Below, piece by piece: positions 15,748 to 32,000 of a DNA stretch of 32,000 nucleotides (the stretch's first letter is position 1; each line of letters begins with the position of its first letter). The position numbers and the translations under genes were made by a program. Origin of the DNA: Candidatus Saccharimonadota bacterium. Its GTDB lineage: Bacteria > Patescibacteriota > Saccharimonadia > Saccharimonadales > UBA4665. The stretch covers positions 360,001-392,000 of the forward strand of contig CP064993.1 in NCBI GenBank assembly GCA_016699955.1. The letters are read 5' to 3'. Below the pieces are notes generated by a model. The model did not search any database and had not been told where the DNA came from. It saw only the letters and a list, made by a program, of their open reading frames with translations.

Positions 15748-17148
15748 GTGGCAACCATAGTAGATTGTGACCGGCTTTGGCAAACAGTGCTCGGCGACAT
15801 AGAGATATCTCTTTCGCGCGCTAACTATATGACGTGGTTTAAAAATACCCATCTTCTTTCTGTAGACGAGGGGCATGCAGTGGTTGGCGTGCAGAATGTT
15901 TTCGTTAAACAGCAGCTTGAAAAAAAATATCGGGAGTTTATAACTGAAACATTACAAAAAACCGATGCTGGTACTGTGACGGTAGATTTTAAGATTCACA
16001 CAAGCTCTGCCCGTAAAGACACGCTAGACGAGCCAGTTGTGCTCGGAGACGCCCGCGCGGCGCAAGTTTCGCACCAGCAGACACCCACGGCGCGCAATTT
16101 TCGCCCCGGTAGCTCCCTGGCTCACCCATACCGTCAAGGAGTCAATGAAAAGTATACTTTTGAAAACTTTATTGTTGGGTCTGGCAACGAACTTGCCTAT
16201 GCTGCCTGTCAGGCGGTCGCCACCGACCCCGGCAACAAGTACAACCCGCTTTTTTTGTATGGCGGAGCTGGTATAGGAAAAACTCACCTTATACAGGCCG
16301 TTGGTAACGCGGTGCTCGACCGCCGACCCGGTTCTCATGTCGTGTATGTGTCAAGTGAGCAGTTCGTTCAGGAGTTTGTTGACGCGCTTCGTTTCAAAAA
16401 AAACACAGATTTTGCGGATTATTACCGCGGGGCTGATGTACTAATTGTTGACGATGTGCAGTTTTTGGCTGGCAAAGAGAAAATTCAGGAGGAGTTTTTC
16501 CATACCTTTAACGCTCTTCACCAAGCAAATAAACAAATCATTATTAGTAGTGACAAGCCACCGCGCGAAATCCCAACCTTAGAAGAACGCCTCCGTAGTC
16601 GGTTTGTTTGGGGTATGAGTATAGATATGCAAAACCCCGACTTCGAAACCCGTTGCGCCATTATCCAGTCAAAAGCTGAAGATAAAGACACTACCCTGCC
16701 TCATGATGTCGTTGAGTTTCTGTCCAGCCAGTTCCAAACAAACATCCGCGAGCTCGAGGGTGCGCTCAACCAGGTTTTGGCTTTTTGTGAAATGCGCGGT
16801 CTTGCACCAAACCTAGCGATTGTCACCGGGCTACTCGGTTCGTCAAAGGGACGGCCAAAACATCTCAGTGCTCGCCAAATTGTTGAGCGCTGTGCAAAGT
16901 ATTACCAGATTTCACTCGACGATATTTTGAGCCCTAAGCGAGACAAGGATATTGTTGTCCCTAGACAGGTCGCAATGTATTTACTTCGGAGTGAGCTACA
17001 CCTTAGTTTTCCTAAAATTGCTCATGAGCTCGGCCGCAAAGACCACACTACTGCCATTCATTCGGTCGATAAAATCAGGAAAGAAACCGACCTTGACCCC
17101 GCTATGAGAACTATTATTGCGGATATTAAGGAGCATTTATATGCATAA
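15748..17148 (+). CDS. dnaA: Chromosomal replication initiator protein DnaA
   Basis: AAA+ Walker A is GGAGIGKTHL and Walker B is LIVDDVQFL. Also has RSRFVWGMSIDMQNPDFETR and the C-terminal DNA-binding HTTAIHSVDKI. I prefer the GTG at 15748 (GGAG 6 nt upstream); the track's TTG at 15736 is an alternative. Confidence 0.95.
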   Translation: MATIVDCDRLWQTVLGDIEISLSRANYMTWFKNTHLLSVDEGHAVVGVQNVFVKQQLEKKYREFITETLQKTDAGTVTVDFKIHTSSARKDTLDEPVVLGDARAAQVSHQQTPTARNFRPGSSLAHPYRQGVNEKYTFENFIVGSGNELAYAACQAVATDPGNKYNPLFLYGGAGIGKTHLIQAVGNAVLDRRPGSHVVYVSSEQFVQEFVDALRFKKNTDFADYYRGADVLIVDDVQFLAGKEKIQEEFFHTFNALHQANKQIIISSDKPPREIPTLEERLRSRFVWGMSIDMQNPDFETRCAIIQSKAEDKDTTLPHDVVEFLSSQFQTNIRELEGALNQVLAFCEMRGLAPNLAIVTGLLGSSKGRPKHLSARQIVERCAKYYQISLDDILSPKRDKDIVVPRQVAMYLLRSELHLSFPKIAHELGRKDHTTAIHSVDKIRKETDLDPAMRTIIADIKEHLYA

Positions 17149-17433
17149 TGTAAGCCGGGTGTTGTGGAGTAATGGGGGTTTGTTTGTGGAAAAAGGATGG
17201 GTTTTTGTTGGCTTTTTCCACCACTCACGATGTTTTGTTTTGGGGGTTGGGGACTTCTTACGTGTTTATACTCCTAGTGCCCCCTGCCGTGTGCACTGTG
17301 TTATCCCCCTCATTTTTTCGTATTTTCTCTCTGTTACGAGCGCGTTATCCCCTTCTTCCACAGGGCCTATAATAAGGGCTATTATTGGTAAAAATGAAAT
17401 TATTTATAATCAACTAAGTGGAAGGGTGTATTG
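17149..17433. other. oriC part 2 (dnaA-dnaN spacer): DnaA-box-like sites plus AT-rich candidate unwinding element
   Basis: Inverted pair GTGGAAAAAG (17186-17195) and CTTTTTCCAC (17212-17221). TTATCCCCC at 17301-17309 and TTATCCCCT at 17345-17353. AT-rich stretch ctataataagggctattattggtaaaaatgaaattatttataat at about 17367-17410. Confidence 0.6.
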
Positions 17434-18525
17434 ATGAAGCTAAAAGTAACCCAAGAAAACCTATCGAAAGCACTCGGGCACGTTTCACGTGTTGCCAATA
17501 CTAGAGGGACATTACCAATTCTCGCAAATGTACTCATAGCAGTAGAAGATAATCGTCTAAAACTTTCAACAACCAATCTCGACATAGCAATCTCCAGTAC
17601 AATTGGGGCTCAAATACAAACCGAAGGAACTACAACAGTTCCTGCTCGGCTTTTTCAAGAACTTGTCTCGGGTTTACCAAATGGTGTGATTGAACTGGAA
17701 TTAGATGAGCAGAGACTGAAAATTTCAGCAGAACACTACAAGTCAGTTATAAATGGTGTTAGCTCCGAAGAGTTCCCGGTAATGCCAGCGATAGATAAAG
17801 GAAAAACCTGGAGTGTCCCTGCCCCGCTCATGAAAGCAGCGCTCCAACAGGTGCTTTTTGCAGCGTCCAACGACGAAAGCCGGCCGGTGCTAACAGGAGT
17901 TGCTGTGCAGACTTTAGAGGGTGTTCTGTACCTTGCAACAACGGACAGCTATCGTCTTGCGGAAAAACGGCTCAGTACTATTAAAGAGGACGTCAATCTT
18001 CTTATACCGGCTTCTGCGCTGCATGACGTACTTCGGATTATTACAGATCAAGACGAAGACATTACCGTCACCTGCGACGAGCAACAAGTTTTGTTTAAAG
18101 TTGGTGACGTGGAACTGGTAGCAAGGCTAATAGAAGGTAATTATCCCGACTACCGCAAACTTATTCCCTCGACATTCTCCACAACCGCGCTCATTCCGCG
18201 CGCAGAACTGGTGAATATTGTAAAAGTGACAAGTTTGTTTGCGCGCGAAAGTGCCGGAAGTGTTGTTATGAGTGTTGACGAGGCAAGTCAAAGTGTGTGG
18301 ATTCGTGCCGTTGCTTCACAACTTGGTGAAAATAACGCCACAACATCGGTGAAGGCAGAAGGGTCTGGCTCAATCACACTCAATTCAAGGTACCTTCTTG
18401 AGGCGCTGCAAGCCATGACCGGAAAAGATGTGCAAATTGGTTTTAATGGTAAGGTTGAAGCGGTACTTCTTTCAGATCCTAGCCAAGAAGATTATAAACA
18501 CATTATCATGCCCCTGAAGAGCTAG
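17434..18525 (+). CDS. dnaN: DNA polymerase III beta sliding clamp
   Basis: MKLKVTQENLSKAL...TLPILANVLI, RPVLTGV and TDSYRLA motifs, and the C-terminal IIMPLK. A GAAGGG SD lies 7 nt upstream of the ATG at 17434. Confidence 0.93.
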   Translation: MKLKVTQENLSKALGHVSRVANTRGTLPILANVLIAVEDNRLKLSTTNLDIAISSTIGAQIQTEGTTTVPARLFQELVSGLPNGVIELELDEQRLKISAEHYKSVINGVSSEEFPVMPAIDKGKTWSVPAPLMKAALQQVLFAASNDESRPVLTGVAVQTLEGVLYLATTDSYRLAEKRLSTIKEDVNLLIPASALHDVLRIITDQDEDITVTCDEQQVLFKVGDVELVARLIEGNYPDYRKLIPSTFSTTALIPRAELVNIVKVTSLFARESAGSVVMSVDEASQSVWIRAVASQLGENNATTSVKAEGSGSITLNSRYLLEALQAMTGKDVQIGFNGKVEAVLLSDPSQEDYKHIIMPLKS

Positions 18526-18549: not shown

Positions 18550-19614
18550 ATGATTTCGAGCATACGCCTGCAACAATTTCGGTCCTACCTAGACACAAAA
18601 TTTGAATTTGGTGACGGGGTAAATGTTATTGTTGGGTCAAATGGCAGCGGCAAAACCAACCTACTTGAGGCGGTGCTTGTCGCTGCGCGCGGTGGCTCTT
18701 ACCGCGTAGCAGACGCCGATCTAATCCATTTTGGAAAAGAATGGGCAAGGCTCGATGCCTTGTTTGACGCATCTCACAACCGAACTATAAAACTAACGCC
18801 ACATGGTCTTACAAAAAAAACATACACCATTGACGACAAACAATACACTAGGCTGGCCGACAACAAAAAACACCCAGTCGTACTTTTCGAACCAAATCAC
18901 CTCCTCTTACTACAAGGGGCACCAGAGAACCGCCGCAACTATCTTGATGATATTCTCGAGCAAACCACACCAGGCTATACTAGTTTTCGGAAAAACTACA
19001 AACGGGTGCTCGCTCAACGAAATGCGCTGCTGAAACATAGAAACGCATTTGCCCACGACTACTTTCCATGGAACCTACGCCTCAGCGAACTCGGCGCTGT
19101 TATTCACCGCGCCCGCAGCGAACTTACCGCGGAGCTTCATACACAAATAGACCAACTTTACGGCGAACTATCGAAAGATAAGAAGCGAGTAACAGTGGAG
19201 TATAGTGGTCAGTTTGCCGCCGGAACTTATGAATCACAACTGCTACATGCGCTAGAGTCCAATATATCAAGAGAGATAGACAGAGGGTTTACAACTCACG
19301 GGCCGCACCGAGAAGATTTCAAGGTTTTGTTTGATGGTGTCCCGTCCACCCTTACAGCCTCACGCGGCGAAGTTCGTAGCGCCACACTTGCCCTCAAAAT
19401 ACTTGAACTACAGGTACTGGAACGCGTTAACGGTGTGAAGCCACTCCTTCTCCTCGATGACGTGTTTAGTGAGCTAGACGTTACTCGCCGAAGCGCCCTA
19501 ACAACACACCTCCAACACTACCAGACGCTCCTAACGACAACCGAAGCAGACATAGTTAAGGATGACGTTAAAAAGTACACTGTAATCTCACTTGAGGGGG
19601 CTAGAAAGCGTTAA
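18550..19614 (+). CDS. recF: DNA replication and repair protein RecF
   Basis: IRLQQFRSY, Walker A GSNGSGKTNLLEA, the signature-like SRGEVRSATLALK and Walker B LLLLDDVFSELD. The dnaA-dnaN-recF synteny is present. Confidence 0.92.
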   Translation: MISSIRLQQFRSYLDTKFEFGDGVNVIVGSNGSGKTNLLEAVLVAARGGSYRVADADLIHFGKEWARLDALFDASHNRTIKLTPHGLTKKTYTIDDKQYTRLADNKKHPVVLFEPNHLLLLQGAPENRRNYLDDILEQTTPGYTSFRKNYKRVLAQRNALLKHRNAFAHDYFPWNLRLSELGAVIHRARSELTAELHTQIDQLYGELSKDKKRVTVEYSGQFAAGTYESQLLHALESNISREIDRGFTTHGPHREDFKVLFDGVPSTLTASRGEVRSATLALKILELQVLERVNGVKPLLLLDDVFSELDVTRRSALTTHLQHYQTLLTTTEADIVKDDVKKYTVISLEGARKR

Positions 19615-20233
19615 CTGCGTCTAATACATCGGCAGGTACATCACTAGTTGAAAACACCGAATACACAAGGCGAGGCGTACCAACTCTTACCCAGCCGGCC
19701 TCAGTCTTATTCAATAATACCCGCAAGGTATCACTATTTTGGTTGAGAGGGTCAACATGAGTGAGCTTGGAGATATACCAATTCCCACGCATTAGTAATG
19801 TCCCCTCTGCTAAACTATATGAACTTTGGTTTTGTAGTTCGCTAAAGACCGCCGACTGAATTTCACCCCACTGCTCACCAATCAGCGACTTTATTTTATC
19901 GCGTGAGTATTCAGGGGTAATCGTTACACTCTGCGAATCCGCATACTTAAAGCCATCCGCATAGCCGGAAGCTCCAGAGTAAACAACTAAAACGGATGAA
20001 ATTGCTTTTGGTATACGAACAGTTTCACCGCTTTTTGCAAGTTTTTTTAGTAGCACATCTTTACCGCCAGCTTCCCTCCCAGAAACGTCGTAAATAGAGA
20101 GCGCAGAGACGTTTTGGTATATCACTGTCAGCGGACGACTATTAAGGTAGTTCCTAACAAATATAGTCAGAACTGTTAGTAAAATGAGAAATATCCCTAA
20201 GAAAAACATTGTCCGTAAGCGTAAGGGCTTCAC
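19601..20233 (-). CDS. N-terminally anchored 210-aa protein, last gene of the T4SS-like block (size and topology compatible with a VirB8/PrgL-like component; unproven)
   Basis: Single TM helix MFFLGIFLILLTVLTIFV followed by a ~170-aa ectodomain. It overlaps the upstream gene by 4 bp. No motif was recognised. Confidence 0.5.
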   Translation of the reverse strand: MKPLRLRTMFFLGIFLILLTVLTIFVRNYLNSRPLTVIYQNVSALSIYDVSGREAGGKDVLLKKLAKSGETVRIPKAISSVLVVYSGASGYADGFKYADSQSVTITPEYSRDKIKSLIGEQWGEIQSAVFSELQNQSSYSLAEGTLLMRGNWYISKLTHVDPLNQNSDTLRVLLNKTEAGWVRVGTPRLVYSVFSTSDVPADVLDAVNAF

Positions 20234-20877
20234 AAATTTTCTCCTGTTAACGGATTAGTAAAATCATCAAAACGTATGTCAAGCTGCGCGAGAGAGTAAC
20301 CATTATCAACGATCCATTGCAGCGCTTTCTGGCGACCCGTCGGGGTACTGTTACCTATGAGAAGGAATATTTTGTCAGAACCAGCGCCAACATAGCCATA
20401 ATCAATAGTGTATGGGCCAGATATATCGTAATGAGGCAGCAGTTCAATGATGGGATTTTTTGCGTGGAATGAAGCGCCTCTATTCTCAGCATTCAAGCCG
20501 CCTATCTCTTCGCGCTTAGCATTAATTCCTTCAGAATTTGACCAGGTGATAGCTTCTGGTGACTCGGGGGCGGGCAGTAGACCAATATACGTTCGGGAGG
20601 CGGAGATAGTTGTTTTTTGTGTGTCATCTGCAAAGCCAGCCTTTTTTGCAGAAAACTCGTATTCCCCGGGCGCCAGATACTGCACACCGGCAGATATTAC
20701 CTTGCCATTAAGATAAACAGTAGCATCATCTGGCGAAACGGCAACCGTTACACGAATTTTCCCCTGGCGTGAAGTGCTTGAATACAGGTTTAGCCCAATA
20801 AGTATCACAAGTAGTACGGCAAAAAATACACTGAGCGCAACAAGCCTTCGTTTGAATAGGCGCGAGTTGTCCTGCAT
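20230..20877 (-). CDS. N-terminally anchored PEGA-domain-like protein
   Basis: TM helix LVALSVFFAVLLVILIGLNL, then IRVTVAVSPDDATVYLNGKVISAGVQYLAPGEYEFSAKKAGF, which resembles a PEGA beta-sandwich. AGGAGG SD upstream. Confidence 0.5.
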   Translation of the reverse strand: MQDNSRLFKRRLVALSVFFAVLLVILIGLNLYSSTSRQGKIRVTVAVSPDDATVYLNGKVISAGVQYLAPGEYEFSAKKAGFADDTQKTTISASRTYIGLLPAPESPEAITWSNSEGINAKREEIGGLNAENRGASFHAKNPIIELLPHYDISGPYTIDYGYVGAGSDKIFLLIGNSTPTGRQKALQWIVDNGYSLAQLDIRFDDFTNPLTGENL

Positions 20878-20892
20878 AATAATTTCTCCTCC

Positions 20893-22959
20893 TTATACAC
20901 CTAAATCTGTTTTAACAACGAACCACAAGAAATCTGGGTCGGCAACGCCCTCTAGGCCAGCCATGGGTGCTCTTGAACACTGTGACGCAGAAGCAATCTT
21001 AGAATAAAAGCCTGCATGTTCTCCAATGTACAAGTAGGTATGACCACTTCTGAGTGCAATGGCATAAGAATATTTTGCAAGGTCCTGGGTGGTTTTTGGT
21101 TTGATTTCCTCGTACATGTCCGGGTTTTCTCGGACGTAAGCCAGCTGACCGTCGGTATTCCTCGCTCCGTTCTTAGCTTCACCATATTTCGGGTCTACCC
21201 CACTATCCTGCATAACTCTTGTCGTAAAGCCGCCACAATCAACTCCACCTCCGTAGCAAGTATCACCCGTGTACTTGCCGTTGGTTTTTGCCGTTCGAAT
21301 TGCTTGCTCGTACGATGGTTTTTTTTCTGTGGGGTTTTCTGTCGCTTTTCGGTACTTAGGCCAGGCATAGTTTATCGCTACTTGGGCGACGCTACCCGAG
21401 CCGGTTGTTCCGCAGCCGGCTTGACTGGTTGCAGAAGTCGTCTGAGCCGATGCGGTAGGAGAAAAGAAAGAATTAACCCTTCCCCATAGGGGGGTTGTCC
21501 CCGCCCGCGCCTGAATGGGTTTTTCTCCTGATCCGACAGGTACGGCAGTCATTATGCCTTGTGCTATGCCTCGGGCGTAGACGTCTTGTTTGAATCCGGT
21601 CCGCCCAGTTTCGTTGTATACCCAAGGTACCTTGGAAAAAAGCTGCACAATCGATATATTACCCGCAGAAAGACCGGAACGCCCATCAAAGTTTAGGTCT
21701 TTCTCAATTGTGCCCGCTTCGCCAGCAGTTTTTCTAGCCTGTATCATTTTGTTGCTGTATTCTTGGCTTTTCGCGGCTACTGCCGAGTCTGAAAAGGTGG
21801 TTTTTATACCCTCATCATTTTGGCGGTAAGCGCCAACTTTCTGCGGGCTTACCCAGGATTTTTCTTTGTCACCAAACCTGCCGGTGTCTGTGTGGATACT
21901 CACTGCTATTGCTGCATTTGCATTATTTGCAATAGTAGCGCGTTCCTTAAGACTAATTGCCTCGTCTTCGGTTTCTTTAGTTACTATTACCCTATACCCC
22001 TCTGATTCAAGGATTGTCTTGGTCTGAAGTGCTACCTCCCAGACCTGCTTCCGTTCTTCAGGGTTTGTGGTTTCGCCTATATACAAGCCAGTTTCTGAAT
22101 CTTTTAAGCCAGCATCCCTCGTAGAAGCACCGGAATGACCCGGGTCAAGCACTACGACGGGTGCGTTGGAGGCGTTGCCCACTGAGCAAGAACAACCCGA
22201 AGAAGCATTTACATATGTTGCGCCAGTTTGCTGGTATTTGAGGGCTATCTCCGCTGCCTTTACGCGGGAGTCATAGGCTTTCTCTCCCGCACCCTCCATT
22301 GATAATTCGTAGTATACAACCGCCTCTCGTAAGTCGGTTTGGGTGAAACCAGCCAGCATATTTTTTTTACTGGTGGGGCTATCGTAGTTCATGTGCCACC
22401 AGACAAGATCGAGCTGAGTGGATAATTCGGAAATTGGGCCGGTAATATTTGCTTTCTGGGCTATGCCAATTACTTTACTCGCCGGAGTCCATTGTATAAG
22501 ACCCCACCCACCCTGATCACCCTTGGCATTGAAGCTAACTTGGGTGGGGTCGGTTGTTCTATCGGGAGTGAAGCCAGTTTGCGTATTAAGTGGATCACCG
22601 CCTGATTCATGAGCGATGTTACCGATAATCGCTGCAGCCTGTATTCTGCTTAGTGGCGTTCCGTCTGGAAGCTTTTTTGACAAGAAGTAGTTGTATGCGT
22701 TTACAAGATTTTCGTGGTTATTTGCTGATGTCGCCACATTGGAAGTAGGTTGGCTGCAGGTGGGTACCTCGGTAGGGTTATACCAACAAGTGTTGTAATA
22801 CATACAATTAAAATCATCTGTTGTATACGCGAGCACTGGTTTACCCTGCGAAGTGACTAAAACAATAATCCCACAAAGGACGTAGGATATTCGTCTGACA
22901 GTCAGCCAGAAAAGTGAGGTGTTATGCTGTGCGCGTGGGCGAAGTAGGGATAGTTTCAT
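20893..22959 (-). CDS. Secreted three-domain peptidoglycan hydrolase: lysozyme-like (phage-tail-lysozyme type) + N-acetylmuramoyl-L-alanine amidase (Amidase_3-like) + NlpC/P60- or CHAP-like peptidase
   Basis: AAIIGNIAHESGGDP...GGWGLIQWT for the lysozyme-like domain. VVVLDPGHSGAS...AIAVSIHTD for the amidase. VDCGGFTTRVMQDSG...SGHTYLYIGE for the Cys/His peptidase. I prefer the start at MKLSLL (ATG 22959), which overlaps the upstream TAA as TAATG. Confidence 0.75.
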   Translation of the reverse strand: MKLSLLRPRAQHNTSLFWLTVRRISYVLCGIIVLVTSQGKPVLAYTTDDFNCMYYNTCWYNPTEVPTCSQPTSNVATSANNHENLVNAYNYFLSKKLPDGTPLSRIQAAAIIGNIAHESGGDPLNTQTGFTPDRTTDPTQVSFNAKGDQGGWGLIQWTPASKVIGIAQKANITGPISELSTQLDLVWWHMNYDSPTSKKNMLAGFTQTDLREAVVYYELSMEGAGEKAYDSRVKAAEIALKYQQTGATYVNASSGCSCSVGNASNAPVVVLDPGHSGASTRDAGLKDSETGLYIGETTNPEERKQVWEVALQTKTILESEGYRVIVTKETEDEAISLKERATIANNANAAIAVSIHTDTGRFGDKEKSWVSPQKVGAYRQNDEGIKTTFSDSAVAAKSQEYSNKMIQARKTAGEAGTIEKDLNFDGRSGLSAGNISIVQLFSKVPWVYNETGRTGFKQDVYARGIAQGIMTAVPVGSGEKPIQARAGTTPLWGRVNSFFSPTASAQTTSATSQAGCGTTGSGSVAQVAINYAWPKYRKATENPTEKKPSYEQAIRTAKTNGKYTGDTCYGGGVDCGGFTTRVMQDSGVDPKYGEAKNGARNTDGQLAYVRENPDMYEEIKPKTTQDLAKYSYAIALRSGHTYLYIGEHAGFYSKIASASQCSRAPMAGLEGVADPDFLWFVVKTDLGV

Positions 22960-25900
22960 TATGGTGTTCTCCCGAGTGAATAGTGCCAGTGATTGCCTGG
23001 TCCGCCGCAAGACTCACCAAGAAAGCGAACAACATTGTATTTTTGCCCAATACTGTCGCCAAGTTGGACATTGGCCGGACAACCAAAGTCGACAGCTTGA
23101 CCTCGGCCATGTTGGCTGCCCGCGCTGTGACACTGGCCGAAGAGAGAGTTGATTTTGTAGTGGTACTGGTTACCATAATCAACGAGAAATTTAAGCAGAG
23201 AAGGATGGGGGGTAATTGTCGCCGGCATTTGGTAAGCGCAGCGCGTCGTAATACCCACCGGTTTGCCAGCCGCCATGTCTTCGAGTTGCTGGCTGGCCAG
23301 TGACCTAGTAGCGCTGTCAGCTGCTTTGTTGGAAGAATAGTCAGCTATTGTTATTTTCCCTGAGTCCCGAAGTGCCAAAATTTGTTTAGCAAGGGCGGCA
23401 ACGTCAGCCGTGCCCACGGGCGCTCCCAGATCTGAACCGGTGGGTGAGTTTGAGCCGACCGGGGCTACACCTGTTGTTACTTTGGAAAGATCCTCGAGGT
23501 GGGCGAAACTGTTTTCATAACGTCCATCAAGCCGCCAGCGGAATACTAGATCGCCAAATCCCTGAGTATTGTTTCTACCGAGATTGGATGGTGAACAGGG
23601 TAATTCTGGGTTGTCTACCACATCCCCACGGTCATCCCTTTCGATCATTCGTTGACTAAAGAGCTCTCCAAGGCTGCTAGTGAAGCATTTGCCATAGTTG
23701 GCCGCTATATCATCCGAGCGACCGCTGAGTCGTAGGTACTCTTTGTTGATAGCCATCCCATATTTGTCTTGATTATTTATGATTAACGCTTCTTCTTGCT
23801 CTGTCCAGCCAAACTGAGTGTTCCCGTAGTAGCTATCTGAACCTGCCGCCTGTGCTTTTACTGTCGGGCTGAGGTTGTTAATAAACGATCCGAAATACCG
23901 TAGTGGGTTAAGTATGGTCGTGCCAATATTGCTTATTGTCTGTAATAAGCCCGAATTTAGGCTAATCTTCATCCCTATTGCCATACGCGAAGCAAGTGAA
24001 CCGGCGTTTGTTAAGGCAAAATAACGTGTAAAGAAACTCAAGTTTTTTTGTTGGTCAGCAAGATATATGGCATCTGCTTGTTGACTAAGAACGATACTCT
24101 CGGGAGTAAGAGGAGCGCCAAACGTGATACTTCGTGATGCTTCGTTGCCCGCAATTATTCCGCCGGAGTCAACGTTATTAGCATTGTCAGTTCCCATTGA
24201 AAGCCCGCTTGTAAGCTGCCCAGCCCGGGTGTACGTGATCAATCGGGCAAGTTCCGTTAGCCCATACGTTCCCCCAATGATTGCGCCTTGTTTGACGGCG
24301 CCTACGCCTAGAGCCTTTGAGCCGATAACAAACCGTGCCATACGGGTAATTGAATTCGTCTCAACAGTAGAAAGACTATCTTTAGCAGTCTTCTTTATAA
24401 TCGACTTGGCGACCGCTGTTTCAAGCATACTCGTAAACTTAAGTTTGATGTAGCTGGTAATAAAACTTGTAACGCCTTTTTCTACCCCTTTCTCTAGTAG
24501 AACCTTGCCGCCGCCAGTAAAAATGTCAAGCAGAATGTTTCCAGCCGCCAAACCAACAACGGTGCGCATATCTGTTATGGCACTACACCCGCCCGAGACG
24601 AGTTTATTAACCGCATTGCCAGCTACTCCCCCGGGGGCAATGTTTAGGGCGTTAAGTATTGAATAGTCGTATGTACCCATTGCGTTCGCCTGCGCGCGCG
24701 GGCTATCGGAAGTATTTGGTGTTTTGCCAGCAGCTCTCTGCATGGCGTTTGAATTGCTGTAGTCACCAAATTGATCGTTCGTTGCGCCCACAGCTGTTGC
24801 CAGCGCAACAGGATCGCTGACATCAGATCTGCTACCGTGCATTTGTTGCGCGGAGACAGCCATAGTATCGTAAAAGGCCAGTTGTTGCTGATTTGACTGT
24901 TGGTCGATGGTTGAACCTGCTTTTTCCATGGAGCCGTCATAAATGATACAAAGAGGAAGAGCGATGGCAAATCCAGTGTTTATAAAGGATAGCGTGGTTC
25001 CTAGCGCACCTTCGCCGAGCGCGGCCCCCCCAGTAGCCTCAACATCCCGAATGATTTTGTCGGCCACACCATTTTTTTTGAGAGTATCATCCAGCAACTC
25101 ATCACTCGCAAGCACTGCTTTTTCTGCCTCAGATGCAGCAATAGCACCATCTTTTAGAACTGCGGTGGCGGGGGGTTCTGCAACGAATTGTGCGCCACTT
25201 ACCACGGCTGCTCTATCTCTTGCGGCTTTGAGCGCGGCACTATCTTTATCGAGACCACTGTAGCGTGACAGGATCCGGCCGGCCAAGTTGGCACCAATTC
25301 GACTCCGCAAGTTTTCCATTGCTTTTGCGCGTACTAGAAAGTTGACGTTAGTAAGCTTCATATCCTCTCGGACAGCGCGCAGAATGGTTGCTTGAATTTT
25401 AGCGTTTTCAACGTACCCCCCGAACCGTAAAGGGTCTTTCAGGTTTCCTTTAATATCCAAAACACCAGGCGGTTGCTTTATTCCATAAGTGTCGCTCCCG
25501 TACGCAATTTTTGTTAGCGTTGCGCCGTCACTTCCTCCGTAATAAAAATGAAGACCTTTTGTTTCGCCAATGTTTTCAAGAACCTTCTGTGGTCGCCACT
25601 TCTCAAAGCGGTCGATGGTTGGACCAAACCGCTTCTTTAAGGCCGTCTTTACTCGTCCATCTGCGGCTTGCACCGCCAAAGCTTCTTGAGTTGACAACAC
25701 GCTCGTGGTTGCTAGTTGACGGCTAAAGCGTGCGAAACTATATTTCATAACATTTTGCATGAAGTTCGGCAAACCAAGAGACGACAAGAAAAGCATGACA
25801 ATGACTATCACGGCAACAAGTCCTCCCACTGCCCCGCCAGCGCCAGCAATGAGCCATTTTTTAGAGCCTTTTTTTACCAGGCTGTTTGAACCTTTCAGTT

Positions 25901-26219
25901 TTTGCTTTGATCCAGTAAAACCTCGTCCGAGCTTGTTTTGCTCGTCTTGCGCTGCGTTTGGCTGGTCTGCCGAACTTCCGCCAGCATCCTCTTTATCACG
26001 TAGGGTATCTGGGCTGTCGGCTGCACGGTTGTTTTCGGCTAGTTGTTTTGCAGTCGGCTGTTCCCGGCGGGCGTTACCGGCATGTCCGTCTGGCGAGCTT
26101 TTATATAGGCGTTCAAGTTGGTCGGTTTCTGCTTCGGCACGTTCGGGGTGAACACCTAAATCATCGTGGCTCCCTGGTACGTATTGTTTGGTTGTTTCTG
26201 GGTCGTATACGCGAGGCAT
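22959..26219 (-). CDS. 1086-aa bitopic membrane protein of unknown core function with a C-terminal M15/LAS-type zinc peptidase domain
   Basis: Charged, disordered-looking N-terminal ~120 aa, the TM helix WLIAGAGGAVGGLVAVIVIVMLFLSSLGL and a long Gly/Ala/Ser-rich ectodomain. The C-terminal CHSAGSQHGRGQAVDFG ... GNHWHYS fits the H-x6-D ... H-x-H LAS metallopeptidase pattern. Confidence 0.6.
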   Translation of the reverse strand: MPRVYDPETTKQYVPGSHDDLGVHPERAEAETDQLERLYKSSPDGHAGNARREQPTAKQLAENNRAADSPDTLRDKEDAGGSSADQPNAAQDEQNKLGRGFTGSKQKLKGSNSLVKKGSKKWLIAGAGGAVGGLVAVIVIVMLFLSSLGLPNFMQNVMKYSFARFSRQLATTSVLSTQEALAVQAADGRVKTALKKRFGPTIDRFEKWRPQKVLENIGETKGLHFYYGGSDGATLTKIAYGSDTYGIKQPPGVLDIKGNLKDPLRFGGYVENAKIQATILRAVREDMKLTNVNFLVRAKAMENLRSRIGANLAGRILSRYSGLDKDSAALKAARDRAAVVSGAQFVAEPPATAVLKDGAIAASEAEKAVLASDELLDDTLKKNGVADKIIRDVEATGGAALGEGALGTTLSFINTGFAIALPLCIIYDGSMEKAGSTIDQQSNQQQLAFYDTMAVSAQQMHGSRSDVSDPVALATAVGATNDQFGDYSNSNAMQRAAGKTPNTSDSPRAQANAMGTYDYSILNALNIAPGGVAGNAVNKLVSGGCSAITDMRTVVGLAAGNILLDIFTGGGKVLLEKGVEKGVTSFITSYIKLKFTSMLETAVAKSIIKKTAKDSLSTVETNSITRMARFVIGSKALGVGAVKQGAIIGGTYGLTELARLITYTRAGQLTSGLSMGTDNANNVDSGGIIAGNEASRSITFGAPLTPESIVLSQQADAIYLADQQKNLSFFTRYFALTNAGSLASRMAIGMKISLNSGLLQTISNIGTTILNPLRYFGSFINNLSPTVKAQAAGSDSYYGNTQFGWTEQEEALIINNQDKYGMAINKEYLRLSGRSDDIAANYGKCFTSSLGELFSQRMIERDDRGDVVDNPELPCSPSNLGRNNTQGFGDLVFRWRLDGRYENSFAHLEDLSKVTTGVAPVGSNSPTGSDLGAPVGTADVAALAKQILALRDSGKITIADYSSNKAADSATRSLASQQLEDMAAGKPVGITTRCAYQMPATITPHPSLLKFLVDYGNQYHYKINSLFGQCHSAGSQHGRGQAVDFGCPANVQLGDSIGQKYNVVRFLGESCGGPGNHWHYSLGRTP

Positions 26220-26227
26220 GGTAACTC

Positions 26228-28153
26228 CTACGAAAGATTATTCGTGCTCCCTGGGTATAATTGGTTTTGAAGATCGATTGTTCCCTGGGGCTGGGTCATT
26301 TCACCCTGCCTCATGGCTTGAACCTGTTGTGGGTTGGTGGTAATGAGGCTGGTTTCGGTGGGGCTTGCAACTATTTGCACATGAACGTGATTCTGGCCAG
26401 CAAAGAACAGCCCCTGTCCCACGGGGAATTGGCCGAGCCGTTTCTTTTCTTCTTCGGTGAGCTTAAAAACATCGCTCAGAACATCAACCGCACTACTGGA
26501 TTGTTTCAAGAGAATTTGCATACTCGCATTTGCCACAATGGCGCGACCCATCCGAGATCCCATGAAATCCTCTACATCTTGTGTAATAGTGGTAATGCCC
26601 AAGTTATATTTTCGAGCGCGTTTAGCGAGGCTGAAGAGGAAGTTTGCGCTGTCTTCGTATTTCATGAGCTGCCACGCCTCGTCAACAATCAAAATACGCT
26701 TCTTTTGGTCACCTTTTGTCTTGTTCCAGATGTAGTTTAATACAATATACATGGCAACTGGCCGGAGCTCATCTTCGAGGTCACGTATGTTAAACACAAC
26801 CAGCGGATTGTTGATATTAATATTGCTTTGTTGACTGAATATTCCAGCAAATGTACCACTGGTGTATTTGCGCAGCCTTTGAGCAAGCTGCGGCCCACTA
26901 CCGCCCATATGGAGGAGCGTGTCGTACAAATCGGCTATAGTGGGTGGTAACGACGAATGGGTCAGGGGGTCTTGGGTGATGCCAGCCTTTGCGTAGGTGT
27001 CAATAAGCGCCGCGTCAAGGTCTGCCTCCTCTGCTGGTGAAAGCGCTGGTGCAAGCGTGCTGTTTCCTCCAAGCATTTGGGCTTGAGCGCCGCCCATCAT
27101 CAGACGCAATAAACCATGCAGAGTTATGAGGTTAGAGCGCAAGGCATTATCTGCCTCCTCGTTATCAACAACTTGGGGTAGGTCAAACGGATTAATTCTT
27201 GTTGCAGAGTTAAGGCTGAGCCGGACGTAGGCACCCGCGACCGCATCGCACATGCGTTCGTACTCGTTCTCGGGGTCAATAATGAAAATTTCGGTTCCAA
27301 ACATGAGGCTCCGCAAGGCTTCAAGTTTTACTGCAAAGCTTTTTCCTGCGCCAGACTTGGCGAACACGACTGAGTTGCCGTTTTCGAGACTGAATCTGTC
27401 AAAAATGACCAATCCTGAGTTGTGCATATTGATGCCATATAAAATGCCGTTATCCTGGCTGAGATCGGCGCTGGTGAACGGGAAGCTGGTACTGATAGCG
27501 CCGGTGCTCATGTTGCGGTGAATTTGTAGCTGATCCATCATTTGCGGCACAACACTGTTGAGTCCTTGTTCTTGCTGGGAAGTCGCGGCTTTGCTGTAGA
27601 CAAGCTGCTGGCCAAGCATACTTTCTACCTTATGGCTGACAAACTCAAGCTCGTCTTGGCTGCTGGCGTAAATGGTAAAGTACAGACCAAACCTAAAGAA
27701 GAGTTCTTCGCCCACCTGCAACTTGTCGCGCATTTCTTCGGCGTCGAGAATAGCAGCTTGTTTACCCGGGTCACGTACACGACCCTTCTCGGCATCTATT
27801 TGTAAGCCTGCTTCAAGCTGAGTAACTTTTTTGCGAAGGTTTTCAAGCACAACCTGGCTTTCCACGGGGTATACGTATATAGAAAGATCCATCACTTCGT
27901 CTAAATTGACGAGGCCGCTCAGCCAGCCGGTATAGATTTGACGGGGGTACCCATAGACGTAGTAGGTGCGGGCTAGTCGTGTGCCAATCTGAAAGTATGT
28001 GCTAAAGAACTCAATACTGCTCGGTGCTATGAAGTCGCGGAGCGCCGTAATGCCCTTGCGAAAAGCCTCGCTAACCTCTGCCTGCTCACGCGCCTGCTGA
28101 TTTTGGGCGAGCGAAACCGGGTCAATAGCGGGCTGTTTCTTGCCAAAAGCCAT
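26228..28153 (-). CDS. virB4: VirB4/TraE/PrgJ-family type IV secretion ATPase
   Basis: Walker A is FAKSGAGKSFAVK and Walker B is KRILIVDEAWQLM. Also has ITTITQDVEDF and the N-terminal domain pattern FIAPSSIEF...RTYYVYGYPRQIYTGWL. AGGAGG SD upstream. Confidence 0.88.
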   Translation of the reverse strand: MAFGKKQPAIDPVSLAQNQQAREQAEVSEAFRKGITALRDFIAPSSIEFFSTYFQIGTRLARTYYVYGYPRQIYTGWLSGLVNLDEVMDLSIYVYPVESQVVLENLRKKVTQLEAGLQIDAEKGRVRDPGKQAAILDAEEMRDKLQVGEELFFRFGLYFTIYASSQDELEFVSHKVESMLGQQLVYSKAATSQQEQGLNSVVPQMMDQLQIHRNMSTGAISTSFPFTSADLSQDNGILYGINMHNSGLVIFDRFSLENGNSVVFAKSGAGKSFAVKLEALRSLMFGTEIFIIDPENEYERMCDAVAGAYVRLSLNSATRINPFDLPQVVDNEEADNALRSNLITLHGLLRLMMGGAQAQMLGGNSTLAPALSPAEEADLDAALIDTYAKAGITQDPLTHSSLPPTIADLYDTLLHMGGSGPQLAQRLRKYTSGTFAGIFSQQSNININNPLVVFNIRDLEDELRPVAMYIVLNYIWNKTKGDQKKRILIVDEAWQLMKYEDSANFLFSLAKRARKYNLGITTITQDVEDFMGSRMGRAIVANASMQILLKQSSSAVDVLSDVFKLTEEEKKRLGQFPVGQGLFFAGQNHVHVQIVASPTETSLITTNPQQVQAMRQGEMTQPQGTIDLQNQLYPGSTNNLS

Positions 28154-28260
28154 TTAGCCAACCTCCTGTCTTACGCACAAAGGGCAACATACAAGAGACA
28201 AGAACGAAGTCTTGTAATGCGTCCTACTAACCCATAAACCAAAACTCAAAACGCTTTTGT

Positions 28261-29130
28261 TCATTGGAGCTCCCTCTGCAAATGTTCCTGTGGTGCCATG
28301 CCTTGGCCTTTCTGAACGACTTCGGCAGTAAGGTCGTTAAAATTTTTCAGCTGTTGGCGCGTAGCGGTGTCTGGGTTGTATGTGTCGTAGTACAACTCGA
28401 TCAGCTCCTGTGTATCAAGAGGCAAGCCTTGTATGCCACACTGTTGCAAGCCACCAAGTACGGATTGAACGCGGTTTCGCAGCTCGTCTTTTGCTTTGGC
28501 AAGGTCAGGCTCATTAATCACAACATGGTTTTCAGTTTTATTAAACAAATCAATAAAACCATTGAAGAAGTTTTTACTTTGTGTGATTGCCTTTTCTGGG
28601 CCAGCAGCGGGTTCGAACGGGACGACTATATAGAATTTTTTGTCCATAATGTTAGTCTGTAAAGCTAACTGATCTATATAACCGATGTAATCGTCCATGA
28701 GTAAGGCAAGTAGCATGTTGTCGTGCTCAGTGCGGATTTTGTCTAGTTTCTCTATGTAAGGCTGAAGGTCTACTTTTTGCGAACGTATAAATATTTGCAT
28801 AGGGAAATATAGTGAGTTCAAAAAGCCCTGGTAGGCATATTCAGTACTCTCTTGTTCCTGGGGACTCATCAGGTCAAAATTGATGCTTTTGACCATAACA
28901 ACGGCTCGGTATGTCCCGTCGTTCATGATGACAATGCCATCGCGTATCTCGGCAATCTGAAGGGTGTTCTGCGTGCTGTTTGCGGGGGGCTGTGTTCCCT
29001 TGCCTGCTGAACCAGGGGCTGGTGCTATAGCCATGTGCGGTGGCTGAGGCGGCACGGGCTGAGGGTATGCGGCCGCAGCCATACCTTGAGAAGGCGTCTG
29101 TGGTGTGTATGGTTGCTGGTTTGGGTCCAT
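28261..29130 (-). CDS. 289-aa protein with Pro/Gln-rich N-terminus and a region resembling the VirB4 N-terminal domain, with no ATPase motifs
   Basis: IAEIRDGIVIMNDGTYRAVVMVKSINFDLMSPQEQESTEYAYQGFLNSLYFPMQIFIRSQKVD follows the same residue pattern as N-termini of Gram-positive VirB4 homologs. There is no Walker A or B. Confidence 0.45.
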   Translation of the reverse strand: MDPNQQPYTPQTPSQGMAAAAYPQPVPPQPPHMAIAPAPGSAGKGTQPPANSTQNTLQIAEIRDGIVIMNDGTYRAVVMVKSINFDLMSPQEQESTEYAYQGFLNSLYFPMQIFIRSQKVDLQPYIEKLDKIRTEHDNMLLALLMDDYIGYIDQLALQTNIMDKKFYIVVPFEPAAGPEKAITQSKNFFNGFIDLFNKTENHVVINEPDLAKAKDELRNRVQSVLGGLQQCGIQGLPLDTQELIELYYDTYNPDTATRQQLKNFNDLTAEVVQKGQGMAPQEHLQRELQ

Positions 29131-29154
29131 GCCTTTTGCTCCACCTTGGATGAC

Positions 29155-30291
29155 TTAGCGAAGAGATATCACAACTTCGTCGTCATCATGCCTTGTTTCT
29201 TTTGTTACCTGACGAGCGAGCGTTGCAATATTTAAATCATCATTACTTGCTAGGTTCATTATAGCAGCCCGCTTCTCTGAAGTCACTTGTGCTTTTTGGC
29301 GTTCTGCCAGCTGACGCTCTGCTTCTATGGCGGCATTTTCTTGAGCAATGCGACGCTGCTCCTCGGCAATTTCCGCCGGAGTTTTTATGTGTTTCAAATG
29401 GTCATTGGTGCTAGCCCGCGATTGATGGGCTTCCTTCAGCTGCTGTACCAACGCTTCCTCGTCGGCGGTAGGTGAAGCTGCTTGAGTAACAATGGGGGGT
29501 TCATTTGCCACGGGCATACCGGGCGACACAACTGCTGCGCTCGCAAACGTCGCTTGACCATTGACGGGTGTCGGTTGATGCATGAACCAGTAGTCGTTTT
29601 GCGGCTGCGTTGTTTGTTGAGTTGGCGTGGACTGTGACGCGGGGTCTGTCTGCATCTGCTGCATGAGCTGCTGGCGCTGGGAAGCAGCCGCGGTTTGTAT
29701 CATACTGTCAAAATGTTGAGCTATTGGGTTTGCCAGTGGGTCAAGCATGTCGTCGGTTGCACTGACATCGACACCACTAACTTCTTGTGGCAGCATTGAG
29801 CCGTCAACCAAGCGGTCAGAAGGAGCCACATTTTGATGCAGTCCGACGTCGAGGGTAACATTGACATTTTTTACCGCCCAACCTCGGCTATCAATTGTGT
29901 CAGCCAGTGCGTGCAGACGACTCCGTACTTCCGTTTGGCTCAGACCATTTGTCAGGTTGCGCTCAACCTTTTTGGGCACAGTAATTGTAACCAGTTCTTT
30001 TGCTCCACTTTGATCCCAAATGCGCTTTCGTGGCTTAAGATAGAAGCGCAACTTTGCTAGTGCCCAGACCTCAGTCGGCTGGTCTCCGTGCCACGGTATT
30101 GCTAAAAAACCGGTAAAAAGCGCGGGCGGTATAAACAGAATCAACAGAAATCCGACATTTTTTGTAACGGCAAAAAACGAGAGGTACATAAAAAATGCTG
30201 AAATTGCCGCATAAATGAATTGCCTGAGCGTCAGTGGCCCGACTAGCGTGTCTTCCGATTCAATATCCTGTAAAACCTTATACGTCGCCAT
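29155..30291 (-). CDS. PrgI-family (VirB3-like) T4SS membrane protein with a long Gln/Ala/Glu-rich C-terminal extension
   Basis: The N-terminal YKVLQDIESEDTLVGPLTLRQFIYAAISAFFMYLSFF plus a second TM matches the PrgI-family pattern. It sits immediately upstream of the virB4 region, as in Gram-positive conjugation loci. Confidence 0.65.
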   Translation of the reverse strand: MATYKVLQDIESEDTLVGPLTLRQFIYAAISAFFMYLSFFAVTKNVGFLLILFIPPALFTGFLAIPWHGDQPTEVWALAKLRFYLKPRKRIWDQSGAKELVTITVPKKVERNLTNGLSQTEVRSRLHALADTIDSRGWAVKNVNVTLDVGLHQNVAPSDRLVDGSMLPQEVSGVDVSATDDMLDPLANPIAQHFDSMIQTAAASQRQQLMQQMQTDPASQSTPTQQTTQPQNDYWFMHQPTPVNGQATFASAAVVSPGMPVANEPPIVTQAASPTADEEALVQQLKEAHQSRASTNDHLKHIKTPAEIAEEQRRIAQENAAIEAERQLAERQKAQVTSEKRAAIMNLASNDDLNIATLARQVTKETRHDDDEVVISLR

Positions 30292-30300
30292 ATTGGTTAT

Positions 30301-30306
30301 AGTATA
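30301..30306 (-). promoter_or_regulatory. -10-like TATACT 9 nt upstream of the prgI-like ATG (candidate short-leader or leaderless promoter)
   Basis: The minus strand reads caggTATACTataaccaatATG, with no SD. Confidence 0.3.
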
Positions 30307-30468
30307 CCTGAAAATCTCGCTTCCAGAGCTAATTTCCAGAGGCCTAGCCTCTTAGCCTCCAGGCCCCTGGGCCCCTTGGCGCATTCTTAGTGGGAATTTT
30401 CCGAAACTCTCACCTGTCAGAGCTCTGGCCTCTGAAGCCCTGTAGCCCATGGTTCTTGGAACAAACAA

Positions 30469-32000
30469 TTATGATGTCGGTTGTGGACCGGGTTGCCCAG
30501 GGCCGGTCCCTTGCGGACCACCTGGCTGACCCACCATTTGACCTTGACGAGAGTCCCACTCTTTACGCCTATCCATGAATATTGGATCGGAAGATGCTCG
30601 GAGCTGCTCTTCGCGTTGACGAATAGAAATAGTAGCTCCGGTATTTGGATCGGTGTATCCTGATGGTTGTGAGGCTAAGTAGTCTGCGAGCAGATCCTTG
30701 TTCTCGCTATTGTAATAATTTACTGCTTCGCGGAAACTGGCGATATCGGCCATAATCTTCTTTTCCTCATCTTCGTCTATTGAGCCATCTGCACGTATTG
30801 CGCCCTGGTACCGAGCCTGTAGGTGCTTCGCAACCCCTTCAATCGTCTCCTTGCGTGCTCCTGCTAAGGAGCTGAACTGCATTTGGGTAACGGCGGATTC
30901 ATACATCTGGCTTGCATCGTTCATAGTTACGGCTCGTCCCTGTCCTCCGTTACTAGCTCGGAGCTCATGGAACTTCGTCAATAGATCACCGTGGCTAATG
31001 CTGCTAAATTCTTGCCGTTGAGCCTGCTTAATCGTGGCCGTCGCCTGTGCATCCGTCCAGAGGCCAGCCTGAACCATGTCCTCAACATCCTGCAGCATTT
31101 CACGCATTCCTGCTTCGCCCTCACCGTAGACAGTTTTAGATTGGACTTTTGATGCCCCAGCTACTCTTGTCATCGTGCCTGACCCTAATTGAGTTTTTAG
31201 CCCGGCCTCCAGCTCGGCTAAGGCTCGTAGGGCATCATCTCGGCTACGGGTTCTCCCTGCTGCAGTGGCTGAGCTAAGATAGGTACTAACAAAGTGCTCT
31301 TCCATCTCTCCTCGTGATTTCCCGACCCTACCTTGCGCGACACCCAAGCCTACATCATGAGCAGCCCTGAGGCCGAAGTCATCGTCTGTTGAATGGAGAA
31401 CGTCATTCTTTCTGGCTTCAGCAGCGGCTTGCTCTGACAGCGATGTACGTATTGCTTGTCGGCCGTGTTTTGATATCAGTCCCCTTATGCCCACGCCTGG
31501 GTCCCCCGCGGCACGTGCATATGCTGCAGTTTGTGCGACAATGCCTTCGCCACGGCGAGCCTGTGCATATTCGTTAAAGCGCTGCTTGCGGGAATTCTGA
31601 CGGAAGTTACTCATACGGTCGAAAACACCCTTACTTTTGTCATTGGCAAGCGAGAAAATGGTGCTCAGAAGTCCGCCGGCCAGTTTGAATCCTAGTGGTA
31701 GCAAGAAGTACGGGCCAAAGTAGAGGAGTAGTATAAACAGGTAGTTTCCTGCTTCTATGGCGGTAGCAACCCTAGCCATCACTTCGCCAGCGGCAAGTAG
31801 CCCCATGATAATGGGAAACATTACTAGCGAAGATATGAAGGTAGTCTTCCAAAAAGACCAAAGTTTTTGTGTTCCTGGCAGTACATAAGCAGCAATTGCC
31901 AGGGGAGCAAACAGAATACACAAGGCAATAATTACCCATCGAATAGCTAGTGTAATCAACCCCACGATAATTGCCAGCAGGAGTGTCCCCAGTAGACTCA
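30469..32000 (-). CDS. VirB6/TrbL/PrgH-like polytopic membrane protein with a large soluble C-terminal domain (5' end outside the window)
   Basis: The frame stays open to base 32000 (…SLLGTLLLAIIVGLITLAIRWVIIALC…). At least 5 TM helices are followed by a ~370-aa hydrophilic domain ending in a Gly/Pro/Gln-rich tail. Its position upstream of prgI-like and virB4 supports the call. Confidence 0.55.
   Translation of the reverse strand, partial: SLLGTLLLAIIVGLITLAIRWVIIALCILFAPLAIAAYVLPGTQKLWSFWKTTFISSLVMFPIIMGLLAAGEVMARVATAIEAGNYLFILLLYFGPYFLLPLGFKLAGGLLSTIFSLANDKSKGVFDRMSNFRQNSRKQRFNEYAQARRGEGIVAQTAAYARAAGDPGVGIRGLISKHGRQAIRTSLSEQAAAEARKNDVLHSTDDDFGLRAAHDVGLGVAQGRVGKSRGEMEEHFVSTYLSSATAAGRTRSRDDALRALAELEAGLKTQLGSGTMTRVAGASKVQSKTVYGEGEAGMREMLQDVEDMVQAGLWTDAQATATIKQAQRQEFSSISHGDLLTKFHELRASNGGQGRAVTMNDASQMYESAVTQMQFSSLAGARKETIEGVAKHLQARYQGAIRADGSIDEDEEKKIMADIASFREAVNYYNSENKDLLADYLASQPSGYTDPNTGATISIRQREEQLRASSDPIFMDRRKEWDSRQGQMVGQPGGPQGTGPGQPGPQPTS

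Follow-up and report, generated by a model that had tools for sequence, protein, structure and literature searches.

The 32,000-nucleotide stretch of chromosome analyzed here (contig CP064993.1 of a Candidatus Saccharimonadota bacterium, forward-strand positions 360,001 to 392,000; hereafter the window, with positions counted from its first letter) carries a block of minus-strand genes beside the replication origin, from 19601 to the window end at 32000. This block is read, with a probability of about 0.7, as a type IV secretion system (T4SS) of the Saccharimonadia chromosome, inherited vertically and with a non-conjugative export mechanism, of which the window shows the origin-proximal two thirds. 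Its components are identifiable and keep a constant order next to oriC, there are no DNA-processing genes nearby, its ATPase is under strong constraint and its surface parts evolve fast. A first-pass annotation made from the sequence had recognized a T4SS of the Gram-positive (mating-pair formation FATA, MPF-FATA) type beside a Saccharibacteria origin and had linked it to epibiotic growth, both of which hold, but it overstated the novelty: the same locus has been published as essential in Southlakia epibionticum, surveyed and reviewed. The locus is thus already known and adds no new kind of system. Added here are a negative test of the last gene as a VirB8, the recognition of the PEGA-type genes as operon members and as paralogs with exchangeable C-terminal modules, confirmation of a wall-cutting module of four activities, and a measurement of the contrast in rate between the ATPase and the surface proteins. 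The T4SS of Saccharibacteria is the first T4SS reported to be essential for its own carrier, and its substrate and direction make it an important problem for understanding the life of ultrasmall epibionts on host cells.

An open reading frame (ORF) check confirmed the layout given by the first pass: eight co-oriented minus-strand ORFs (Table 1), successive spacings of -4, 15, 8, 107, 24 and 177 bp, a convergent overlap of 14 bp (19601-19614) between the last gene of the block and the stop of recF, and no gyrB after recF in the window. The context of dnaA, dnaN and recF fixes the block beside the replication origin. The proteins of the window were compared with the Pfam and NCBIfam libraries of hidden Markov models (HMMs) at curated cut-offs, and transmembrane segments and topology of the block proteins were taken from hydropathy, which agrees with the topologies given in the first pass. 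The source of the block is a Saccharimonadales metagenome-assembled genome (MAG), in which the 210-aa protein is listed by NCBI as IPL85_01960 (Candidatus Saccharibacteria). For comparison, the window VirB4 was scanned against one genome per species, which gave at least 585 relatives; the best 80 loci (L001-L080), all from Saccharimonadales-type MAGs, were used, and the 54 of them that span the region are the base for gene order and detection counts, with distal proteins sought by tblastn. Nonsynonymous divergence (dN) was obtained from five pairwise codon comparisons, in which synonymous sites are saturated in every gene.

Table 1. Features of the window, their detection and divergence among the 54 region-spanning loci, and their counterparts in S. 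epibionticum.
Feature	Position	Strand	Basis	Detected	Median identity	dN	S. epibionticum counterpart
Pilins	beyond window						SEML1_0014-0019, pilins
Second VirB6-like protein	beyond window						SEML1_0013, second VirB6-like protein
NTF2-like protein	beyond window						SEML1_0012, NTF2-like (DPAM), non-essential
VirB6-like polytopic channel protein, C-terminal ~509 aa, runs off window end	30469..32000	-					SEML1_0011, 998 aa, VirB6-like
PrgI/VirB3-like membrane protein, 378 aa	29155..30291	-	Pfam PF12666	54/54	48%	0.19-0.32	SEML1_0010, PrgI
TrsD-like free-standing VirB4 N-domain homolog, 289 aa	28261..29130	-	NCBIfam	54/54	73%	0.12-0.18	SEML1_0009, 293 aa
VirB4 ATPase, 641 aa	26228..28153	-	NCBIfam CD1110, Pfam P-loop_TraG, Walker motifs	54/54	87%	0.039-0.074	SEML1_0008, VirB4
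1086-aa bitopic protein	22959..26219	-	Transmembrane prediction, family-level LAS/M15 evidence	23/54	29%	none	SEML1_0007, 1113 aa, Hedgehog/DD-peptidase at 951-1105
Three-domain anchored peptidoglycan hydrolase	20893..22959 (longest ORF to 23010, 705 aa)	-	Pfam, family profile	34/54	32%	0.43-0.98	SEML1_0006, 643 aa, two lysozyme-like domains and cysteine proteinase
Anchored PEGA-like protein, 215 aa	20230..20877	-	Sub-threshold Pfam PEGA, transmembrane helix	13/54	29%	0.60-0.92	SEML1_0005, 211 aa, PEGA domain-containing exported protein
Anchored protein IPL85_01960, 210 aa	19601..20233	-	AlphaFold2 model, hhalign	6/54	29%	0.58	SEML1_0004, 249 aa, prealbumin-like and BT0923-like, overlaps recF stop
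recF	18550-19614	+	Pfam SMC_N/RecF-type domain	52/54	54%	0.29-0.42	SEML1_0001-0003 (dnaA, dnaN, recF)
dnaN	17431-18525	+	Pfam DNA_pol3_beta	54/54	63%	0.14-0.26	SEML1_0001-0003
Conserved 105-aa ORF	17117-17434	+	Position kept in relatives				
dnaA	15736-17148	+	Pfam Bac_DnaA	51/54	69%	0.17-0.23	SEML1_0001-0003
Likely oriC, 258-bp gap	15478-15735		Predicted from position				
rpmH (ribosomal protein L34, 45 aa)	15340-15477	-					
999-aa protein	10353-13352	-	Central GDSL-like lipase/acylhydrolase domain (42 bits)				
334-aa ORF	8641-9645		No Pfam match				

According to the profile matches, the motor of the system is a split VirB4, consisting of a TrsD-like N-domain protein and the 641-aa ATPase. 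The ATPase scores 353 bits against the CD1110-family profile of NCBIfam (cut-off 325), over profile positions 174-732, and 97.5 bits against Pfam P-loop_TraG, and its translation contains Walker A (SGAGKS) and Walker B (ILIVDEAW) motifs. For the 289-aa protein, NCBIfam gives matches to the N-terminal regions of VirB4 profiles (Mbov_0397 positions 101-284, E = 1e-6; CD1110 positions 2-118, E = 3.9e-5) and to TrsD (E = 8e-5), all three below the curated cut-offs; listed as undefined in the first pass, this protein falls in the known TrsD family. The N-terminal part of CD1110 that is missing from VirB4 is matched by the 289-aa protein, which implies a TrsD-type split of VirB4. The TrsD-like gene was detected adjoining virB4 in 77 of the 80 loci, and in the window it alone intervenes between the genes for PrgI and VirB4. 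The PrgI-like protein scores 42.4 bits against PF12666 (cut-off 27), with the domain at residues 5-91, transmembrane segments at residues 25-65 (two to three hydrophobic stretches) and, after the PrgI domain, a Q/P/A-rich and coiled-coil tail of ~290 aa. The assignments of VirB4 and PrgI, which the first pass had set beforehand as the test of its interpretation, therefore both lie above their HMM cut-offs.

The VirB6-like ORF has no in-frame upstream stop before 32000, so that only the C-terminal part of the protein is visible, comprising at least the last three transmembrane helices (three by hydropathy) and a hydrophilic tail of ~400 aa; full-length orthologs are mostly ~940-1200 aa long, and the fragment shares 44% identity with the C-terminal half of the protein of locus L009 (1017 aa). 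The fragment has no Pfam match of its own. Among orthologous transmembrane cores, 9 of 30 match Pfam TrbL/VirB6 (best E = 3.2e-5), and the sole PDB match of the family profile is a weak one (E = 0.17) to TrwI, the VirB6 of R388. The first-pass label of this protein as VirB6-like is thus supported for the family and, for the truncated copy of the window, indirectly.

In all 54 spanning loci, the VirB6-like, PrgI, TrsD and VirB4 genes are followed in this order by a variable block of 5-7 kb and by convergent recF-dnaN-dnaA, with recF missing in a few. VirB4 is 82-96% identical among the best 80 species-level genomes. Its proportion of synonymous differences (0.82-0.87) is saturated, as it is in dnaA and dnaN; the conservation of VirB4 is thus attributable to purifying selection and not to recent transfer, and the locus to long vertical descent rather than recent insertion. 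Recent horizontal transfer as the source of the 96% identity was rejected on the saturation of synonymous sites. The dN of VirB4 is smaller than the values for DnaA and DnaN by a factor of 3-6, and the distal surface proteins exceed VirB4 in rate of divergence by a factor of 6-25; in the relatives, tblastn mostly fails to detect the four distal proteins. This contrast in rates points to the exposed distal proteins as candidates for host specificity.

These observations also bear on whether the block could be an ordinary integrative and conjugative element (ICE), or the decaying remnant of one, with its relaxase, coupling protein and integrase just outside the window. Such an element would agree with the membership of VirB4 in the family of CD1110, from an ICE of the CTn2 type, and with the position of the right-hand boundary of the block outside the window. 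As the first pass had stated for the 12.4 kb of the block, searches of the ORFs of the 32-kb window with Pfam and NCBIfam yielded no relaxase, no VirD4/TcpA-type coupling ATPase and no integrase; none of the three is present within 10 kb on either side in the gene maps of the relatives, and over this distance none of the 80 loci has a second Walker-A ATPase of the size of a coupling protein. The 10 kb upstream of VirB4 in the relatives encode VirB6, small unknown proteins and pilins. The window contains no tRNA gene, no repeats flank the block, and GC content and base composition are uniform between the block and its flanks. Plasmid-borne VirB4 proteins reach at best 37% identity to that of the window, and in Patescibacteria only 15 of 2,474 cases of virB4 have a relaxase in the vicinity (Quinonero-Coronel et al., Microb Genom 2025). 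Together with the same site and order in 54 species-level genomes and the saturated synonymous divergence, these results make the ICE reading highly improbable, and it was rejected on synteny, composition and absence of signature genes.

Past position 32000, the locus was traced in the relatives, where the rest of a VirB6-like protein of ~1000 aa is accompanied, often, by an unknown protein of 250-470 aa upstream or downstream of VirB6 and, upstream of VirB6, by a divergent array of 4-7 genes for VirB2-like pilins (PF18895). The proteins of 300-400 aa near VirB6 in the relatives have no Pfam match at relaxed thresholds. The description of the system as minimal in the first pass is therefore not sustained: the relatives continue past the window edge with the rest of VirB6, often a further protein, and the pilin array.

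Between VirB4 and the PEGA-type genes, two proteins supply four predicted peptidoglycan-cutting activities. Profile matches confirmed the three domains of the murein hydrolase proposed in the first pass as lysozyme-like (Pfam Phage_lysozyme2, 65.4 bits, residues 103-255), N-acetylmuramoyl-L-alanine amidase (Pfam Amidase_3, 61.4 bits, residues 286-406) and NlpC/P60 cysteine endopeptidase. The last of these was predicted from the profile of the C-terminal family, which matches NlpC/P60 enzymes (MepS/Spr/CwlO; MepS E = 1.6e-4) and in which Cys (DCGgF) and His (GHT) are invariant; the C-terminus as a single-sequence query against the PDB gave nothing meaningful. One transmembrane or signal anchor is located at residues 34-52. 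Translation probably starts at the ATG at 22959, for a protein of 688 aa and an overlap of 1 bp with the upstream stop codon, and the longest ORF (705 aa) starts at a TTG at 23010.

The fourth activity is assigned to the C-terminus of the hypervariable 1086-aa protein, which consists of a disordered cytoplasmic N-terminus (~1-125), a transmembrane helix (130-148), an ectodomain of ~800 aa and a C-terminal domain. As single sequences, the whole window protein has no Pfam match and neither it nor its C-terminus has a PDB match. In the C-terminal family, an H-x2-G-x3-D motif is invariant, and the top 23 PDB matches of its profile are all Hedgehog N-domains (E ~0.08). The positional ortholog in L009 (11941-15213) aligns with the window protein along its full extent by hhalign, with E = 5e-64 over 834 columns at 14% identity; the C-terminus of this ortholog scores 56.8 bits on Pfam VanY, with SQHGRGQAVDF aligned onto the VanY catalytic motif SNHQMGIAIDF. 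A Hedgehog/DD-peptidase domain of the LAS type (M15/VanY-like) is a reasonable though indirect assignment, so that the M15 peptidase named by the first pass is supported for the family, with Pfam blank on the window protein itself. The adjacent VirB4 proteins of L009 and the window are 93% identical, and the 14% identity of their 1086-aa proteins could reflect either diversifying selection or relaxed constraint.

The same wall-cutting activities enter into another possibility, in which the locus encodes an organelle for attachment and wall remodelling only: a VirB2-type pilus and hydrolases that serve adhesion or division where the host is contacted, with no substrate translocated. In agreement with this, the pilin array is essential and unique among monoderm T4SS, four wall-cutting activities are present in the operon, and surface components are hypervariable, as expected at a host contact. 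Saccharibacteria already adhere by type IV pili, however, and the constraint on the ATPase and the VirB3/VirB6 translocon seems beyond what assembly of a pilus would need, although the latter argument is a weak one. An organelle confined to adhesion is accordingly considered improbable.

The favored reading is that of a T4SS that is not used for conjugation. The PrgI/VirB3-like protein would dock the split VirB4 to the membrane beside the extended VirB6-like channel, and the machine would be assembled through the epibiont's own wall, to form a pilus or conduit toward a host of the Actinobacteria type. The hydrolases may open the wall of the epibiont and probably that of the host too, and the pilins may form the extracellular part of a contact-dependent conduit to the host. 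Macromolecules are predicted to cross this contact zone, with proteins or effectors moving outward to the host as the most likely cargo.

Alternatively, the same machine may serve as an import or feeding conduit that takes up host macromolecules or metabolites (RNA, nucleotides, lipids or peptides) through the pilus and the VirB6 channel, in a manner comparable to ComB and Ced, relatives of T4SS that import DNA. Import would explain why the system is indispensable for an organism without biosynthetic pathways and essential in S. epibionticum even though no effector is known, and it fits with the absence of a nearby coupling protein to recruit outgoing substrates. VirB4 of the window partially matches CedB (E = 8.6e-15) and CedD (E = 4e-6), ATPases of DNA import in archaea, but these matches are far below the cut-offs and restricted to the shared P-loop region. 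A 2026 preprint on feeding on host RNA by a Patescibacteria parasite describes tubular interface structures "that may be T4SS pili", which is indirect support. Against import, such a function has been shown for no MPF-FATA system, loss of comEC (DNA uptake) leaves the viability of S. epibionticum unaffected (2025 review), and the sequence carries no sign of the direction of transport. Import is judged less likely than export, and it is the main and a serious rival.

Several considerations weigh against the export reading itself. The mechanism is proposed by analogy, as no substrate, effector or transport direction is known for any T4SS of Patescibacteria. The evidence that supports a VirB6 identity for the window protein, like that for the LAS/M15 domain of the 1086-aa protein, is at the level of the family. 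The window stops inside VirB6, and the pilin array is known from relatives and not from this genome. The search for coupling proteins covered the window and 10 kb on either side in the relatives, and a VirD4 homolog may be encoded elsewhere in the 1.21-Mb genome; in many Patescibacteria, homologs of the type IV coupling protein are far from virB4 (Quinonero-Coronel et al., Microb Genom 2025). For orthology with the S. epibionticum genes, the basis was the published record of coordinates, gene lengths and domains.

The two genes closest to recF, for the 215-aa and 210-aa proteins, form the end of the operon, with translational coupling to the block. The 215-aa protein has a transmembrane helix (12-30), a PEGA-like beta-sandwich and a C-terminal domain, and its orthologs hold the same position in related loci. 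Called PEGA-like in the first pass, it matches Pfam PEGA (E = 0.0094, 16.3 bits) below the cut-off of 20.8. The family of the 210-aa protein was collected by an exhaustive phmmer search, in place of word-based searches that had returned the protein itself only or a skewed set of 10, and comprises 440 representative clusters, all of about 200-235 aa. An AlphaFold2 model of the 210-aa protein, built on an alignment of 127 sequences with a mean pLDDT (predicted local distance difference test) score of 96.3, contains a transmembrane helix (4-30), a seven-strand PEGA-like sandwich (32-105) and an alpha2-beta5-alpha domain (111-209), which was also modelled separately (pLDDT 90.2). Over the PEGA segment, the 210-aa and 215-aa families align by hhalign with a probability of 94.9% (E = 4.5e-8), and the shared sandwich implies that they are paralogs.

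The first pass had proposed the 210-aa protein as the equivalent of PrgL/VirB8 by size and topology. In Foldseek searches of the PDB with the whole chain and with the C-domain model, there was no match at the significance threshold of E <= 0.001, to NTF2/VirB8 folds or to any other. The VirB8-like proteins appeared only in the noise, all with E > 0.4: TcpC (3ub1) with a TM-score of 0.35 (E = 0.44), TraH with 0.21 (0.12 for the whole chain) and OrfG with 0.25; the best TM-score, 0.47, belonged to a designed protein with a cystatin fold. A VirB8/NTF2 identity was rejected after these two fold searches. The modelled protein has a size and topology compatible with VirB8 and a fold that is not demonstrably NTF2, and the role of VirB8 may fall to another protein outside the window, such as the counterpart of the NTF2-like SEML1_0012.

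In several relatives, the slot before recF is occupied by a protein of ~470-500 aa (16240-17751 in L005 and 17126-18541 in L058; also in L056, L075 and L043). The first ~105 residues of these proteins, a transmembrane helix and sandwich, match the 210-aa family, and a different module makes up the ~370 aa that follow. Fusions of the 215-aa and 210-aa proteins were considered as their origin and rejected, as the match is limited to the first ~105 residues. This pattern suggests swapping of C-terminal domains on a constant anchor of transmembrane helix and sandwich. A tentative extension, rather improbable, is that the four distal genes may constitute a fast-evolving host-interface module that sets host range. 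In it the PEGA proteins, which the published cluster definition omits and which combine a conserved transmembrane anchor and beta-sandwich with an exchangeable C-terminal module, would be unrecognized structural subunits that replace VirB8 as the bitopic scaffold of the Saccharimonadia T4SS.

Around the origin, the left half of the window is a typical origin region, with rpmH-rnpA-yidC-jag and dnaA-dnaN-recF on opposite strands, and a cluster for polysaccharide export and synthesis further to the left. With oriC predicted between rpmH and dnaA, the whole T4SS block is transcribed toward the likely origin, head-on to the fork that moves rightward, and this orientation is kept in all of the spanning relatives; GC skew in the window is uninformative. 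The 105-aa ORF, which has no Pfam match, overlaps the end of dnaA by 32 bp and the start of dnaN by 4 bp. ORFs of 96-107 aa occupy its slot in L005, L009, L012, L014, L021, L023 and L035, with 40% identity for the copy in L009. A scan of the window with Rfam found no family present, and promoter and terminator scans gave results at chance level only.

Further left, a segment of ~630 bp (7894-8519) recurs at 9726-10345, with identities of 91% over 258 nt and 88% over 57 nt, and the ORFs of 222 and 233 aa in the two copies are thus paralogs. The 334-aa ORF stands between them and is bracketed by a perfect inverted repeat of 21 nt (8625-8645 and 9705-9725). The 999-aa protein, unannotated outside its central domain, is flanked by the jag/yidC genes and by the small ORFs of the duplication. 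Pfam at relaxed thresholds gave nothing for the unknown proteins of the left half.

The window is the direct counterpart, gene for gene, of SEML1_0004-0011 of S. epibionticum and carries a copy of this locus from a different member of the order. In strain ML1 of that species, the only one for which a need of the system in epibiotic growth has been shown, the apparent T4SS encoded by SEML1_0006-0019 is essential by transposon sequencing (Tn-seq), is nearest to Gram-positive conjugative systems, includes an essential pilin series and is without recognizable coupling and relaxase proteins (Wang et al., Cell 2023). Both genomes have dnaA-dnaN-recF followed by a convergent minus-strand block whose last gene extends over the stop of recF, and they are alike in gene order, sizes, domains and the absence of a nearby relaxase or coupling protein. 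They differ in that S. epibionticum has a second lysozyme-like domain where the window hydrolase has Amidase_3, and the window ends before the counterparts of SEML1_0012 (NTF2-like), SEML1_0013 (second VirB6-like) and the pilin array. The cluster as published starts at SEML1_0006 and omits the PEGA-type pair that is coupled to the block here. The Tn-seq calls at the locus are GD/ES/ES; SEML1_0007, the counterpart of the 1086-aa protein, was called essential, and insertions in SEML1_0005 are lost at T1/T2 (Wang et al., Cell 2023). SEML1_0004 is likewise called GD/ES/ES by HMM, yet it has 10-11 insertion sites with ~430-540 normalized reads at all time points; because its insertions persist, unlike those of its neighbours, its essentiality looks less certain than its call.

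In a survey of 2,474 virB4 genes of Patescibacteria, an affinity to MPF-FATA was found, with TrsD, PrgI and VirB6 beside virB4, TrsD being the commonest T4SS component there; VirB8 is scarce, relaxases are lacking, virB4 is near dnaA/dnaN, and peptidase and lysozyme genes are downstream (Quinonero-Coronel et al., Microb Genom 2025). The block of the window, with TrsD beside virB4, dnaA/dnaN/recF adjoining and peptidase and lysozyme genes after virB4, has these traits and does not differ in any essential way from the clade described. A 2025 review counts the Saccharibacteria system as the first essential T4SS.

Among conjugation systems of monoderms (pCF10, pIP501, pGO1, CTn2 and ICEBs1), which like the window have no outer-membrane core components, the order prgH-prgI-prgJ-prgK-prgL of pCF10 resembles that of the window in its VirB6-like, VirB3-like and VirB4 proteins followed by a bitopic wall hydrolase. 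CD1110 of CTn2 is of the same VirB4 family, pGO1 has the split N-domain of the TrsD type, and CwlT of ICEBs1 combines a muramidase with NlpC/P60 as the window hydrolase does. The window differs from these systems in having no relaxase, oriT or coupling protein nearby and, at the position of PrgL/VirB8, PEGA-domain proteins without a detectable NTF2 fold. It differs further in its wall-hydrolase module, which is distributed over two proteins with four predicted activities and domain types other than SLT and CHAP; in the array of VirB2-like pilins of its relatives; and in being chromosomal, vertically inherited and, in the model species, essential.

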